Source: a bacterium
Lineage (GTDB): Bacteria > 4484-113 > JAFGCY01
DNA: 64,000 nucleotides
Assembly (NCBI GenBank): GCA_016932385.1
Contig: JAFGCY010000095.1
Location: 59,306-123,305, forward strand
Reading direction: 5' to 3'
The position numbers were made by a program, and so were the translations under genes. Below, piece after piece: positions 26,532-31,202 of the stretch. Every line of letters begins with the position of its first letter. Position 1 is the first letter of the stretch. Below the pieces are notes generated by a model. It saw only the letters and a list, made by a program, of their open reading frames with translations, was not told the origin of the DNA and did not search any database.

Positions 26532-26700
26532 CTTGATTCCATCGGTCTTCAAACGTTGAAATCATCGTTAGACCTGATCAGTATTGGGCTAACTCACATG
26601 ACGATATCGCGATAATATCCATCTGTTACAATGGGCCCCCCGTAACCCGGACACGGAGTGTATCGCGCGCTTGGTAGCAGCTGGGTTGCACTGGACTGCT

Positions 26701-27171
26701 ATGGCAGACAATACGCAAAAGCAAACCGGACTCCAGTTCATAAAAATCCGCGCCGCCACCGATTTCCCCGGCTGGTTGCCGCGACCGACCATCGTGAGTT
26801 TTTTTCACGAAACGATGAAGCCGTATGAGGACAAGCCGGCTGATATCGAGGCCGCCCTCGACTACGCGTTCTCCGACAGCGAGTACGCGGGCGGATTTCT
26901 GATGGTCACTCATCGGGACGAGCAGCTGGCCGGCGCACTGCTGATGCTCAACTCGGGGATGCGCGGCTACATTCCGGAGAACATCCTGCTGTTCGTCACG
27001 GTGAATCCCGAAATGCGCGGGCAGGGAATCGGAGCGCAGCTGATCGAGCGCTGCGTCGCGGAATGTGATGGCGACGTCAAGCTGCATGTCGACTTCGACA
27101 ACCCGGCCAAACGCCTGTACGAGCGGCTGGGTTTCAAGCATTGTTACGCCGAGATGCGGCTGAAGCGATGA
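26701..27171 (+). CDS. GNAT family N-acetyltransferase.
   Basis: The acetyl-CoA binding motif is MRGQGIGAQLIERCV...NPAKRLYERLGFK. The gene's stop overlaps the next gene's start (ATGA). Confidence 0.7.
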   Translation: MADNTQKQTGLQFIKIRAATDFPGWLPRPTIVSFFHETMKPYEDKPADIEAALDYAFSDSEYAGGFLMVTHRDEQLAGALLMLNSGMRGYIPENILLFVTVNPEMRGQGIGAQLIERCVAECDGDVKLHVDFDNPAKRLYERLGFKHCYAEMRLKR

Positions 27172-28322
27172 GCCAGCTGACGATCAACCTGGACGCCCTG
27201 CGGCATAACATCGAGCAGATCAATCTGTGGATGGACCGCCACGGGGCGCACTGGACGTTGGTAACCAAGGTGCTGTGCGGCCACGCCGACAGCCTGCGGG
27301 CGCTCCAGCAGCTGGGCGTGCGCAGCATGGGCGACTCGCGCCTGGAGAACCTGCATGCGATCGAGCGCGTGATCGATTCCTTCGAAGCCTGGTACCTGCG
27401 ATTGCCGCATCTGACGGCAGTCCATGAGATTGTCGCGGCTTCGGACGTCAGCCTGAACAGCGAGATCGAGATCATCCAGCAGCTCAACGAAGAAGCCCGC
27501 CGGCAGAACAAGGTGCACCGCGTCATCATCATGATCGAGTTGGGTGACCTGCGTGAGGGCATCCTGCCGGGCCATCTGGTGCAGTTCTACCAGGATATTT
27601 TCGGGCTCGATCATATCGAAGCGCTGGGGATCGGCGCGAACCTCGGCTGCATGTCGGGGACCGTGCCCAGCATCGATCAAATGATGCAACTGGCCTTGTA
27701 CCGCGAGCTGTTGGAGTTGAAGTTCGAGCGCCCGTTGCCGATGATTTCGGCCGGCTCGACCATCATGATTCCGATGCTGTTGGCCGGGCAGGTGCCCAAA
27801 GAGATCAACCACTTCCGGATCGGCGAGGCTGTTTTCCTGGGAACGGACCTGATCAACGGGGATACGCTGCCGGGTCTGCGCAATGACGCGATGATCCTCA
27901 ATGCTGAAATTGTCGAGATCAAGGAGAAAAGCCTAACGCCACTCGTCGAGACTTCGGCTTCGATCCGCCCGTTCGAATCGTTCGAGGGCGAGGATGCCGA
28001 GATTCCCGGCCAGCGCGGTTATCGGGCCTTGGTGGCGGTCGGCCAGTTGGATACCGACGTAGCCGGCCTGAGTCCCGTCAACAGCACGTTCAAGATCAGC
28101 GGCGCCTCCAGCGACCTGACCGTCGTCAACATCGGCGAGGACCGGGCGGGCTTGAATATCGGCGACCAGATCAGTTTCCATGTGAATTACAGCGCGCTGC
28201 TCAGGATCATGAGCAGCAAGTACGTCACGAAAGCTGTGACTCCCAAGTTGAGTAGTTTTCCGGAGCCCGATAGCGCACCGCTGCCGTCCGAGGTTCCGCC
28301 CGTGCTGGAATCTGAAGAATAG
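27168..28322 (+). CDS. Alanine-racemase-fold PLP-dependent enzyme (predicted amino-acid racemase family).
   Basis: The N-terminus MSQLTINLDALRHNIEQINLWMDRHGAHWTLVTKVLCGH resembles the Ala_racemase_N domain of YhfX-like or ornithine/alanine racemase-like proteins. The specific substrate is unknown. Confidence 0.6.
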   Translation: MSQLTINLDALRHNIEQINLWMDRHGAHWTLVTKVLCGHADSLRALQQLGVRSMGDSRLENLHAIERVIDSFEAWYLRLPHLTAVHEIVAASDVSLNSEIEIIQQLNEEARRQNKVHRVIIMIELGDLREGILPGHLVQFYQDIFGLDHIEALGIGANLGCMSGTVPSIDQMMQLALYRELLELKFERPLPMISAGSTIMIPMLLAGQVPKEINHFRIGEAVFLGTDLINGDTLPGLRNDAMILNAEIVEIKEKSLTPLVETSASIRPFESFEGEDAEIPGQRGYRALVAVGQLDTDVAGLSPVNSTFKISGASSDLTVVNIGEDRAGLNIGDQISFHVNYSALLRIMSSKYVTKAVTPKLSSFPEPDSAPLPSEVPPVLESEE

Positions 28323-28634: not shown

Positions 28635-29045
28635 TTAACGCGGTTGTTGCCGCAAGGCGGCTTGTCGTTTAAGGCACCGGATTTCCTCCAGACTGAATTG
28701 CTGTCCGCAGACCGAGCAGCGTCCACGCTCAATCTCGGCGATTGTCAGCTCGGAACGGCCGCAGGGGCACATGACGCCGCTGAGCATATTGCCCTGGACG
28801 ACCATGGGTGGCAGGGACTGACCGGAAATCCGCATCCGGTCGCTGGCGGGACGCAGTCCACTGGCGCAGAGCGCGCACAACTCGCCAGAACTAGCCGGCG
28901 GAAGCGGTTTCAGACATTGTTTACACTTTCTCACAGGCATCTTTGGGCCTTCCAAGTAAAACTGTCGCCGTTGTTCACGGATTGCCCGTGGCCATCGGCA
29001 CGATCCCCCCTGCTTGATAGACCAGTCTGCAAGCAGTTTGTTCAA
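28635..29045 (-). CDS. Double zinc-ribbon protein (4 CxxC pairs); paralog A.
   Basis: CKQC..CALC..CPC..CSVC. It aligns along its length with the neighbouring ORF, sharing SGV-CP-C-ELT-A and C-S-CG-F-S-E blocks. The real start is possibly MPVRKCKQC (about 28938). Confidence 0.5.
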   Translation of the reverse strand: MNKLLADWSIKQGGSCRWPRAIREQRRQFYLEGPKMPVRKCKQCLKPLPPASSGELCALCASGLRPASDRMRISGQSLPPMVVQGNMLSGVMCPCGRSELTIAEIERGRCSVCGQQFSLEEIRCLKRQAALRQQPR

Positions 29046-29102
29046 ATGGCTGGACCGCGGGTCAGGAAGAGACGAGCAGGCGGCAGCTGTTCAGCGTAAG
29101 TG

Positions 29103-29474
29103 CTACCAGATCGGAGCGTCCTCGGGCCAGCTTTTTTCCCCTAGCCCGGTATCGCGGAACGGAGTCAAGGTAAGTTTACTGCGGTCTAACTCGGCCTGGC
29201 GGATTAACTCGTTCATCTGCTCGGCGGAGAATTCAAAGCCGCAAATGCTGCATTCCAGATGCTTGAGATCTGCCAATGTAAGCTCGGCATCGCAATGCGG
29301 GCAGGTCACGCCGCTCAGCTTGCGTCCCTCGCTGACGACTTCGATCCGTTCGCTGCTGATTTCCAGTGGTTCACGCTCGACCGGTACTAAACCGATGGCG
29401 CAAAGGCTGCACTTGTCTTCGGCAAAACCCGCAGGCAGTGATTTGCCGCATAACTTACATACTTTCTCTTCCAT
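29103..29474 (-). CDS. Double zinc-ribbon protein; paralog B, immediately downstream of clpP.
   Basis: MEEKVCKLCGK...CSLC...LSGVTCPHCDAELTLADL...CSICGFEFSAEQ. It is co-directional with clpP and 105 nt downstream of it. Confidence 0.55.
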   Translation of the reverse strand: MEEKVCKLCGKSLPAGFAEDKCSLCAIGLVPVEREPLEISSERIEVVSEGRKLSGVTCPHCDAELTLADLKHLECSICGFEFSAEQMNELIRQAELDRSKLTLTPFRDTGLGEKSWPEDAPIW

Positions 29475-29579
29475 CTTCCTTCACCAACCAAGGCTGGATG
29501 CATTCAAGCGCACGCAACCGTGCCCACCCCTACCAGGTAAATCATACCAGAATCCCTTGCTCAGGGGTAAACCCGCGGT

Positions 29580-30191
29580 CTACTGGTCCTTGGGCTCCTT
29601 TGCCGGTTCCTCGGGCTCGATGATCTGGTCGATCAGACCGTATTTCTTCGCCTCGATGGGATCAAGGAAATTATCGCGGTCGGTATCCCGCTCAACGGTC
29701 TTCAGGCTCTGGCCGCTATGTTTGGCCAGCAGGCTGTTCAGCCGCTTTTTCGTAGACAACATCTCACGCGCGTGGATCTCCACATCGCTGGCCTGGCCAC
29801 GGAACCCGCCCCAGGGCTGATGGATCATGATCTTGGCATTCGGCAGGGCGTAACGTTTGCCGGCGGCACCGCCCGCGAGCAGGATCGCGCCCATCGAAGC
29901 CGCCAAGCCGACACAGATCGTGCTGACCTGCGGGCGGATCAACTGCATCGTGTCATAGATCGCCAAGCCGTCGACCACGCTGCCTCCGGGGCTGTTGATA
30001 TAGATATCGATGTCCTTCGTGCTGTCTTCTTTCTCCAAAAACAGCAACTGGGCGACCACGGAGTTGGCGACGAGGTCGTTGATCTCGCTGCCGATGAAAA
30101 TAATCCGGTCCTTCAGCAGGCGGCTGTATATATCGTAGGCGCGCTCACCGAAGTTGCTCTGCTCGATAACCATTGGAACGTAATAGGCCAT
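29580..30191 (-). CDS. clpP: ATP-dependent Clp protease proteolytic subunit.
   Basis: The GGAGGG RBS lies 7 nt before the ATG at 30191. The sequence [33 protein letters not shown]...[32 protein letters not shown] includes catalytic Ser and His. Confidence 0.9.
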
Positions 30192-30302
30192 ATTTCTCCC
30201 TCCAGCCATTATGCTACCACGCGCGGCTGAGAATCCTGTCAATTCCCCGGCTTGTTACACCCGCTAAATCGCGTCTTCACACAGGCAGGTTACAATGGTG
30301 CC

Positions 30303-31202
30303 ATGAAGCGCAAGGATTTCACCAAACTGAACCTCGGCAACCGTGAGCGGCTGACCGGTGGATTGACTGATCACGAACATCCCGTGGTCTCACCGGATGG
30401 CCAGTGGGTTGCCCATTACTCCGGTGAGTACGGCTCGCTGTGCGTGATTGTGACCGACCGCCGGGGGCGGTTCGGCCGTCGCGCTTCACCGCACGGTGGC
30501 AACAATACCCAGCCAGCCTGGGATCCGACGGGGAAACGGGTGGCTTATCGCCACCAGCCGGACACCGAACATAACTGGGAAATCTGGGAAACGGTACTGT
30601 TGCCCCAGGCCCAGCCCGAACTGGTGCTGGGCGATGCGCGCTGGAATTACAAACATCCAAGCTATCATCCCACCGCAGCGCGGCTGGCCTACTTCAGCGA
30701 TGAGGGCAGTGCCGAGATCTACCATCTCTGGGAACTGGACCGGACCACGGGGCAGTGCCGGCAGCTGACGTTCGGCGATTCGCAGAACCACTGCCATCCG
30801 GTCTACAGCCCCGACGGCGCCCGGATCGCCTTTCACGCTTACGAGGGTGTAGACCAGCGGGAACCCGCGGTGACCAACCTGTACGAGCTGACCCTGGAGG
30901 ACGGCGCGACCCGCCAGCTGACCAGCGGGGAGGACCAGTACAAGCATCCGTTCTATCTGACTAACGATGTGATTACTTACCACCATGAGCGCAATACTGA
31001 TGGCCTGCGCTGGCTGGAAGCCATGCATCTGAAATCCGGCGATCTGATTCAGCTGACCAGCGGCAAGAACAATGACAAGCATCCCCATCCCTGGCAGGCT
31101 AAGGGCCGGTATTACCTGGCTTGGTCGAGTAAAAGGCTCGGACCGGAACTGGAAGATGAGCCGGCGACCTATGACATCTTTGTCGCCGAATTGAAGTGCT
31201 AA
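30303..31202 (+). CDS. PD40/WD40-like beta-propeller repeat protein (TolB-like repeats, no obvious signal peptide).
   Basis: Repeated VVSPDGQWVAHYS / PAWDPTGKRVAYRH / PVYSPDGARIAFHA blocks are typical of PD40 repeats. Confidence 0.6.
   Translation: MKRKDFTKLNLGNRERLTGGLTDHEHPVVSPDGQWVAHYSGEYGSLCVIVTDRRGRFGRRASPHGGNNTQPAWDPTGKRVAYRHQPDTEHNWEIWETVLLPQAQPELVLGDARWNYKHPSYHPTAARLAYFSDEGSAEIYHLWELDRTTGQCRQLTFGDSQNHCHPVYSPDGARIAFHAYEGVDQREPAVTNLYELTLEDGATRQLTSGEDQYKHPFYLTNDVITYHHERNTDGLRWLEAMHLKSGDLIQLTSGKNNDKHPHPWQAKGRYYLAWSSKRLGPELEDEPATYDIFVAELKC

Follow-up and report, generated by a model that had tools for sequence, protein, structure and literature searches.

Only a few model phyla have yielded adaptors and regulators of the Clp protease, most of them without relation to each other, and every further one reveals another route by which this universal protease is made to choose its substrates. 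SspB, the tethering adaptor of ClpX in Escherichia coli, consists of a cargo-binding body, a flexible linker and a conserved C-terminal tethering peptide. McsA, the activator of the McsB arginine kinase, is encoded in the ctsR-mcsA-mcsB-clpC operon of Firmicutes and is a small Clp-operon accessory factor whose two zinc fingers, built from four Cys pairs, precede a helix. ClpX itself carries an N-terminal C4 zinc module (zf-C4_ClpX) through which this partner of ClpP recognises substrates and adaptors. In other compartmental proteases, namely HslU on HslV and PAN, Mpa and PafE/Bpa, with their HbYX/GQYL tails, on the 20S core, C-terminal peptides enter inter-subunit pockets; for ClpP we know of no such tail-type protein ligand, and it is engaged by internal IGF/LGF loops of its AAA+ partners. 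Here we describe ZR1, a small double zinc-ribbon protein with a conserved C-terminal octapeptide, whose gene follows clpP in a bacterial DNA stretch of 64,000 nt (contig JAFGCY010000095.1, positions 59,306 to 123,305; hereafter the window), together with its shorter paralogue ZR2. The features considered are collected in Table 1.

To evaluate the linkage between clpP and ZR1 we considered 27 fetched loci related to the window (L-numbers; P-numbers denote family representatives). Full-length members, the window included, were grouped by ZR1 identity into about nine lineages: the window with L003-5 and L011; L012-13; L001-2; L014-15; L016; L017-18; L006-10 with L019 and L020; L021-23; and L025-26. 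The fourth of these, L014-15, was left out of the count because its loci hold too little upstream sequence. In the assessable lineages clpP was directly upstream of ZR1, on the same strand, without exception (8/8). The strongest evidence for a functional link comes from L021-23 and, to a lesser degree, from L025. In L021-23 the ZR protein is only ~31% identical to ZR1 and the flanks are entirely different, with an isochorismatase gene upstream and a radical-SAM gene downstream, and the gene still follows clpP after a gap of only 37-43 nt; it is this adjacency, kept though the protein has diverged and the neighbours have been replaced, that carries the weight. In L025, a short contig with small uncharacterised flanking genes, a protein of the same identity (~31%) is encoded 193 nt after clpP. 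Judged by gene order, the clpP link is real and conserved and concerns one gene, ZR1, ZR2 being an occasional tail-less paralogue. The original prediction, which rested on the window, had proposed a survey of clpP neighbourhoods in relatives and had taken absence there as the sign of a chance adjacency. The survey bore out the prediction as regards ZR1. It did not do so for the duplicated pair: what is conserved beside clpP is ZR1 alone, and both genes together were found in no lineages but those of window/L003 and L016.

The ZR1 gene begins exactly 105 nt after clpP and the ZR2 gene a further 162 nt downstream. The paralogy of the two proteins is, on their alignment, beyond doubt (BLASTP, 41% identity over 97 residues, E 1e-20). 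Hence the arrangement first read from the letters, that is, clpP, a zinc-ribbon protein at 105 nt and then a paralogue, agrees with both the coordinates and the alignment, and the same is true of the shared blocks then given as LSGVxCPxC..ELTxA..CSxCGxxFSxE, which we find in ZR1 and ZR2 as LSGVxCP..ELTxA..CSxCGxxFSxE. Two details needed correction. Four CxxC pairs had been assigned to each protein; they are present in ZR1 (C6/C9, C22/C25, C58/C61, C75/C78), and ZR2 has three CxxC pairs plus one CxC, since its third pair reads CPCG in place of the CPHC of ZR1. For the second protein a length of about 100-136 aa had been given, of which the 101-aa form starting at ATG stands. The 136-aa form starting at TTG was discarded as an unsupported extension, given that the ATG and a GGAAGG ribosome-binding site are common to the window and to its L003 orthologue; further upstream the two sequences have diverged.

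ZR2 is unannotated and had no matches among public database proteins. It is nonetheless, on comparative grounds, a real gene, because its product is 84% identical between the window and L003 and its ratio of nonsynonymous to synonymous substitution rates (dN/dS) is 0.13; orthologues are present in L003, L004 and L011. The dN/dS of ZR1 in the same comparison is likewise 0.13 (that of clpP is 0.03), and the values indicate that both ZR genes are under purifying selection. In L003 and L004, whose contigs are 80%-related to the window, the gene callers chose a 176-aa open reading frame (ORF) on the opposite strand that overlaps ZR2 (L003, 2127-2657).

The AlphaFold models of the two proteins (mean predicted local distance difference test, pLDDT, 69.8 for ZR1 and 73.3 for ZR2) contain like elements in like order up to the helix. 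Precisely, an N-terminal pair of Cys knuckles (pLDDT ~70-78) is followed by a disordered and variable linker (~residues 32-50), and this in turn by the second ribbon and the helix, which are modelled with confidence (residues 53-102, pLDDT 79-89). Short strands flank each Cys knuckle in both models, giving the beta-hairpins expected of a zinc ribbon. In the family alignment the columns of C6, C9, C22, C25, C58, C75 and C78 are invariant and that of C61 is nearly so, the ZR2-type copies having CxC; C58 and C75 are invariant over 32 family members. These observations support the reading of ZR1 as a protein with two C4 zinc ribbons and predict that it binds zinc.

Only the ZR1 model continues after the helix, with a disordered linker of ~13-20 residues and, behind it, the octapeptide WPEDAPIW, the linker and tail together having a pLDDT of 54-56. 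This terminal peptide, overlooked in the first reading of the sequence, is the best-conserved segment of the family. Among 29 distinct tails the consensus W-P-[ED]-D-A-P-[LI]-W is matched, position by position, by 27 (W), 27 (P), 22 (E/D), 24 (D), 26 (A), 26 (P), 25 (L/I) and 23 (W) of them. A conserved terminal peptide behind a disordered linker is the typical layout of a docking motif, and the second ribbon and the tail are also the core that survives in single-ribbon short forms of the family. In the ZR2-type copies the tail is missing and the C-terminus is a basic stretch. Such copies follow ZR1 in just two lineages among the fetched loci, those of the window and of L016; further tail-less representatives are P0013, P0015 and P0022, and the CPCG of ZR2 recurs in P0015 and P0022. 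In a neighbour-joining tree the tail-less copies cluster, without strong bootstrap support for the group as a whole, and this grouping suggests one older duplication with patchy retention.

The family is small. A word-indexed search of 5.8 billion proteins returned five database relatives of ZR1, and among 1.84 billion cluster representatives a profile search matched 37 at E <= 1e-3, of which about 30, the small proteins, were judged to be true members. In a genome scan the family was found in five species-representative metagenome-assembled genomes, four labelled UBP7 and the fifth 'Planctomycetales bacterium'; the window ZR1 itself is deposited at NCBI as JW859_12275 of an unclassified 'bacterium'. 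Neither ZR1 nor ZR2 had a significant model match in Pfam or NCBIfam, in which generic zinc-ribbon models score below threshold. In Pfam, ZR1 scored 20.5 bits with DZR PF12773 (cutoff 27.3), 18.3 with DZR_2 PF18912 (cutoff 27) and 21.3 with Zn_Ribbon_YjdM PF08274 (cutoff 30.8), and the double-ribbon score of ZR2 was 16.1 (cutoff 27); these values, all under the gathering thresholds, support a zinc-ribbon character but not formal membership of the three families. Foldseek and PDB profile searches with ZR1 returned only generic ribbons, and the second ribbon, helix and tail searched alone against the PDB profiles gave nothing. A DUF2089 zinc-ribbon/helix-turn-helix protein of L001 (6196-6591) is a weak tblastn match to the second ribbon of ZR1 (E 5e-4), which is probably generic ribbon similarity. 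We also considered an anti-phage defence or phage protein, and rejected it: the PADLOC and PHROGs collections gave weak generic ribbon matches only (best E 0.003 and 0.0005) and IMG/VR contained no relatives on viral contigs. The anti-sigma motif HxxxCxxC of the zinc-binding anti-sigma (ZAS) type was rejected too, being absent from the family alignment or not conserved in it. In the literature on clpP-linked zinc-ribbon adaptors and on ATP-independent ClpP activators we found no description of the arrangement, in line with the earlier claim that it is not a described system. In the libraries and literature searched the family is undescribed, and the most fitting label for it is that of a new family, probably of Clp accessory proteins.

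The described systems resemble ZR1 in different respects. With SspB it shares the layout, as judged from the model and from tail conservation: a folded body, a disordered linker and a conserved terminal peptide. It differs from it in having no homology to it in Pfam, NCBIfam or the PDB, by sequence or by fold, and in that the SspB tail is basic (LRVVK) and the ZR1 tail is WPxDAPLW, ZR1 being moreover a zinc-ribbon protein encoded beside clpP. With McsA it shares the small size, the four Cys pairs making two zinc fingers, the helix that follows and the proximity to a Clp gene. McsA was also the nearest Clp-related structure in the searches, through a profile match of the second ribbon and helix that is weak and not significant (8gqd_E, E 0.24). 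By contrast, neither Pfam nor NCBIfam gave the ZR proteins a UVR-domain or McsA match, the WPxDAPLW tail is foreign to McsA, and the window contains neither mcsB nor clpC. We therefore rejected ZR1 as an McsA, the similarity being not significant and the mcsB/clpC operon context being absent. In being short and conserved, in closing the chain and in having an aromatic residue close to the carboxylate, the ZR1 peptide recalls the activator tails of HslU, PAN, Mpa and PafE/Bpa.

The comparison with ClpX deserves separate treatment, because the original prediction had built on it in two ways. First, it had held that the pair occupies the place downstream of clpP in which clpX normally sits. It is correct that the window contains no clpX or other AAA+ gene, as judged from Pfam scans of its large ORFs and from tblastn with E. 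coli ClpX; the same query found no clpX in loci L001-L024, and no Clp ATPase gene was found in the ~10 kb past one window edge. However, adjacency of clpP and clpX is common and not universal: the two are unlinked in many bacteria, and the clpP of Bacillus subtilis stands alone. The argument from a clpX slot is therefore weak. Nor does the absence of clpX show that ZR1 has replaced ClpX, to whose zinc-binding domain it bears no detectable similarity. Secondly, it had drawn an analogy to that domain itself, which the Pfam and PDB profile comparisons did not uphold. Both are C4 zinc modules. Yet ZR1 and ZR2 had no match to PF06689 at E <= 1, none of the PDB profiles of this domain was matched at E <= 10, and the Cys spacing differs, being x2-x12/13-x2 in the ZR proteins and x2-x18-x2 in E. 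coli ClpX.

We tentatively propose, as the most likely reading though short of an even chance, that ZR1 is a lineage-specific Clp accessory protein encoded with clpP, whose tail docks on the protease complex and whose ribbons bind a partner, with ZR2 as a competitor. We prefer it because an adaptor-like layout is here combined with a persistent clpP linkage. The terminal peptide would dock onto the Clp machine, that is, onto the ClpP ring or onto the N-domain of an unfoldase encoded elsewhere, and the zinc-ribbon module would bind cargo or a partner. ZR1 may in this way work like a tethering adaptor by the logic of SspB, with folded body, flexible linker and terminal docking peptide. ZR2, which has the module and the helix and lacks the docking peptide, could bind the same partner without delivering it, and so act as a competitor or anti-adaptor. 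We also counted in favour of this proposal that tail-less second copies recur in the separate lineage L016, and that in the window the clpP-ZR1 spacer combines a conserved leader with the lack of a terminator. With respect to the original interpretation, the clpP link was retained and the pair as a conserved unit was given up, and an adaptor or anti-adaptor role is what we infer.

The transcription of ZR1 bears on this proposal in both directions. The 105-nt leader is 87% identical between the window and L003, with zero indels, at synonymous sites differing by ~50%, and is for this reason a constrained leader. It contains TGGTATGAT at 29541-29549, which resembles an extended -10 promoter element and may thus mark a promoter. 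On the gene strand of the window spacer we found neither a terminator-like site nor a consensus sigma-70 promoter, which agrees with the co-transcription with clpP that had been supposed. This does not extend to the relatives: in L007 a strong GC hairpin and T5 come immediately after clpP (by our own reading of the sequence), and in L009 an 8-bp hairpin with a T-rich tail lies 30 nt before the ZR1 start. Strict co-transcription of clpP and ZR1 is therefore not general. Expression of ZR1 probably comes from read-through or from its own leader and differs in level from that of ClpP. The hairpins suggest that ZR1 is made at a lower level than ClpP, which would fit a regulator better than a stoichiometric subunit. 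An RNA element in the intergenic regions was considered and rejected, since these regions had no Rfam match, the fold of the leader RNA was not significant (z-score -1.29) and the clpP-ZR1 spacers could not be aligned over the wider clade. The spacer between ZR1 and ZR2 is 57% identical to that of L003 and has a near-identical core, GAACAAA..GGTCTA..AAGCAGGGGGATCGTGCCG, which contains the small hairpin CTGCTTG...CAAGCAG.

Several observations weigh against a Clp accessory role. The hairpins of L007 and L009 are among them, as is the fact that neither the known Clp adaptors nor the zinc-binding domain of ClpX resemble ZR1 in sequence or fold. In the core clade the divergent propeller gene, clpP, ZR1, an optional ZR2 and a convergent nadA nearby form one block, and as propeller-clpP-ZR1-nadA is syntenic throughout, the linkage seen there could be inherited gene order. 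Finally, the single-ribbon short forms P0041, P0044 and P0048 have the same tail and do not adjoin clpP. Short forms of 72-74 aa are found at L024 751-975 and L027 5001-5222, with tail WP[EP][ED]ALLW; P0041 adjoins M14 peptidase genes, and P0048 lies directly upstream, by 110 nt, of a gene for an extracytoplasmic function (ECF) sigma factor. The short forms speak against an obligate clpP link of the family.

Some of these observations are what a reading without any functional link to ClpP would draw upon, namely that ZR1 and ZR2 are otherwise employed, for instance in nucleic-acid or ribosome binding, and that their adjacency to clpP was inherited within a narrow clade. We regard this as rather unlikely. 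Synteny of the block in the core clade does speak for it, as do the limited depth of the clade (77-95% ClpP identity across all loci), the short forms found elsewhere than beside clpP, and the fact that the only matches are to generic zinc ribbons such as YjdM/PhnA, LysW and RPB12. Nevertheless, in L021-23 the adjacency outlasts the replacement of both flanks, on the same strand and at 37-43 nt, the ZR proteins stay linked down to 31% identity, and an invariant terminal peptide speaks for a specific protein partner.

That peptide could also be read as a degron. In such a case ZR1 would be a dedicated Clp substrate or sensor, whose level reports spare ClpP capacity and which regulates, for example, the expression of stress or protease genes, and tail-less ZR2 would be its stable version; the logic is that of PopR/ClgR in Streptomyces and of Clp-degraded anti-sigma factors. 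ClpX-type degrons are located at the extreme C-terminus, exactly where ZR1 has a conserved motif with a hydrophobic end, and the linkage to clpP, the existence of tail-less paralogues and the position of one short-form member directly upstream of an ECF sigma factor gene are all of the expected kind. We consider it unlikely, since known terminal degrons need less than eight near-invariant positions, of which two are Trp, two Pro and two acidic, since no DNA-binding or anti-sigma (HxxxCxxC) motif is present and nothing was found in Pfam, and since the full-length members have no adjacent sigma factor gene.

The divergent neighbour of clpP offers another candidate partner for the tail. The encoded protein is a stand-alone propeller of the PD40/TolB type, it has no signal peptide, and its gene is kept in the core clade; propeller, ClpP and ZR1 might then form one module, with the propeller as a recruitment or gating platform, and the tail would act like the TolB box of colicin E9. 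In the latter, a disordered peptide binds the canyon of a PD40 propeller, anchored there by W39 and by P45-W46 (35-DGSGW-39, 43-NNPW-46); its two Trp stand seven residues apart, the stretch between them is acidic or polar, and Pro precedes the second Trp (PMC2821528). The ZR1 tail is W-x6-W, acidic between the two Trp, with Pro at the second position before the closing Trp. This likeness is a short pattern, hence a pattern-level lead without homology; the colicin system is periplasmic and unrelated in function, and the window propeller has neither the TolB N-domain nor a signal peptide. The propeller is moreover absent from the fetched flanks of L001, L021-23 and L025, though the tail (at least W-x6-W) is kept there, and we judge binding of the tail to the propeller to be quite improbable. 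Docking of the tail in the hydrophobic pockets of the ClpP ring itself, by analogy with the proteasome activators, is a very doubtful extension of the preferred reading, in which ZR1 would be an ATP-independent ligand serving as gate opener, cap or AAA+ competitor, with the propeller possibly as partner and ZR2 for tuning, and would represent the ClpP counterpart of the HbYX/GQYL-tailed activators or of the HslU tail.

What follows from these readings differs. A peptide that binds ClpP would make ZR1 the first natural protein outside the AAA+ class to occupy the pockets at which the acyldepsipeptide (ADEP) antibiotics act; one that binds the N-domain of an unfoldase, or the propeller, would define a new adaptor route; and if neither holds, the ZR family is one more lineage-specific small zinc protein. 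The interest of the case is accordingly moderate, and would rise sharply only if the tail docks on ClpP itself. In any event, a family of ~120 residues, absent from curated libraries, stands beside clpP in an uncultured lineage, its named members being labelled UBP7; its eight-residue tail is a testable handle, for which the natural tail-less paralogues are built-in controls.

Table 1. Features of the clpP-ZR1 locus; coordinates are positions in the window.
Feature	Coordinates	Strand	Description
clpP	29580..30191	minus	canonical ClpP proteolytic subunit, 203 aa
clpP-ZR1 intergenic leader, 105 nt	29475..29579	minus	constrained; contains TGGTATGAT at 29541-29549
ZR1	29103..29474	minus	123-aa double zinc-ribbon protein (zinc binding predicted) with C-terminal docking-type peptide
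ZR1 N-terminal ribbon	29400..29459	minus	residues 6-25; C6, C9, C22, C25; CxxCxKxLP..CSLCAIGLxP; pLDDT ~70
ZR1 second ribbon	29241..29303	minus	residues 58-78; C58, C61, C75, C78; preceded by EGRxLSGV; pLDDT 79-88
ZR1 alpha-helix	29169..29225	minus	residues 84-102; assigned by DSSP on the AlphaFold2 model, pLDDT 79-88
ZR1 octapeptide WPEDAPIW	29106..29129	minus	residues 116-123; after the disordered linker
ZR1 C-terminal peptide			GEKSWPEDAPIW
ZR1-ZR2 intergenic region, 162 nt	28941..29102	minus	conserved core of ~48 nt at 28996-29043
ZR2	28635..28940	minus	101-aa tail-less ZR1 paralogue
TolB/PD40-type beta-propeller	30303..31202	plus	stand-alone, cytosolic, ~300 aa; ORF listed from 30252

The product of the window clpP matches Pfam CLP_protease (PF00574, 2.5e-83) and the NCBIfam equivalog TIGR00493 (320.5 bits, above the cutoff of 308.6), and the Ser/His/Asp triad is legible in its translation in the motifs GLAASMG, MIHQP and DRDNF. 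The propeller gene (30303..31202), divergent from clpP, encodes a PD40 protein (Pfam, 9.6e-12) without the TolB N-domain, whose nearest solved structures are the TolB propellers (E 1.5e-11); no signal peptide was found in the N-termini of its orthologues. Its divergent pairing with clpP is kept in L003/4, L006-10, L012, L018 and L020 (propeller identity 48-79%) and is not kept in the fetched flanks of L001, L021-23 and L025. The propeller is thus a possible part of the clpP-ZR1 module in the core clade only.

On the other side, two genes on the plus strand separate ZR2 from nadA in the window: one for an ornithine-racemase-like pyridoxal phosphate enzyme (27141-28322; NCBIfam racem_Orr 1.8e-87, under the model cutoff) and one for a GNAT acetyltransferase (26671-27171). 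In L001, L016 and L018 there is no space for these two genes, nadA lying within ~100 nt of the last ZR gene. Zinc-uptake genes, znuA/znuC with znuB, are encoded ~6 kb upstream of clpP-ZR in L001 (1393-3978), and znuA/znuC at the same distance in L021 (1-1539) and L023 (1-1626), a lineage non-syntenic with L001. As no znuABC genes were found in the window or in L006-L010, a zinc-regulation reading based on this proximity was dropped. In L018 codon 4 of ZR1 is TAG (1487-1498), against AAG in the otherwise identical L017 (470-481); this single-base difference reflects either a nonsense mutation or faulty assembly of one sample, and an in-frame TAG as a feature of the ZR1 family was ruled out. Lastly, in L016 a second, partial clpP paralogue (1-171; 61% identical) is directly upstream of the ZR-linked clpP (246-875), so that the gene order of this locus is clpP-clpP-ZR1-ZR2.

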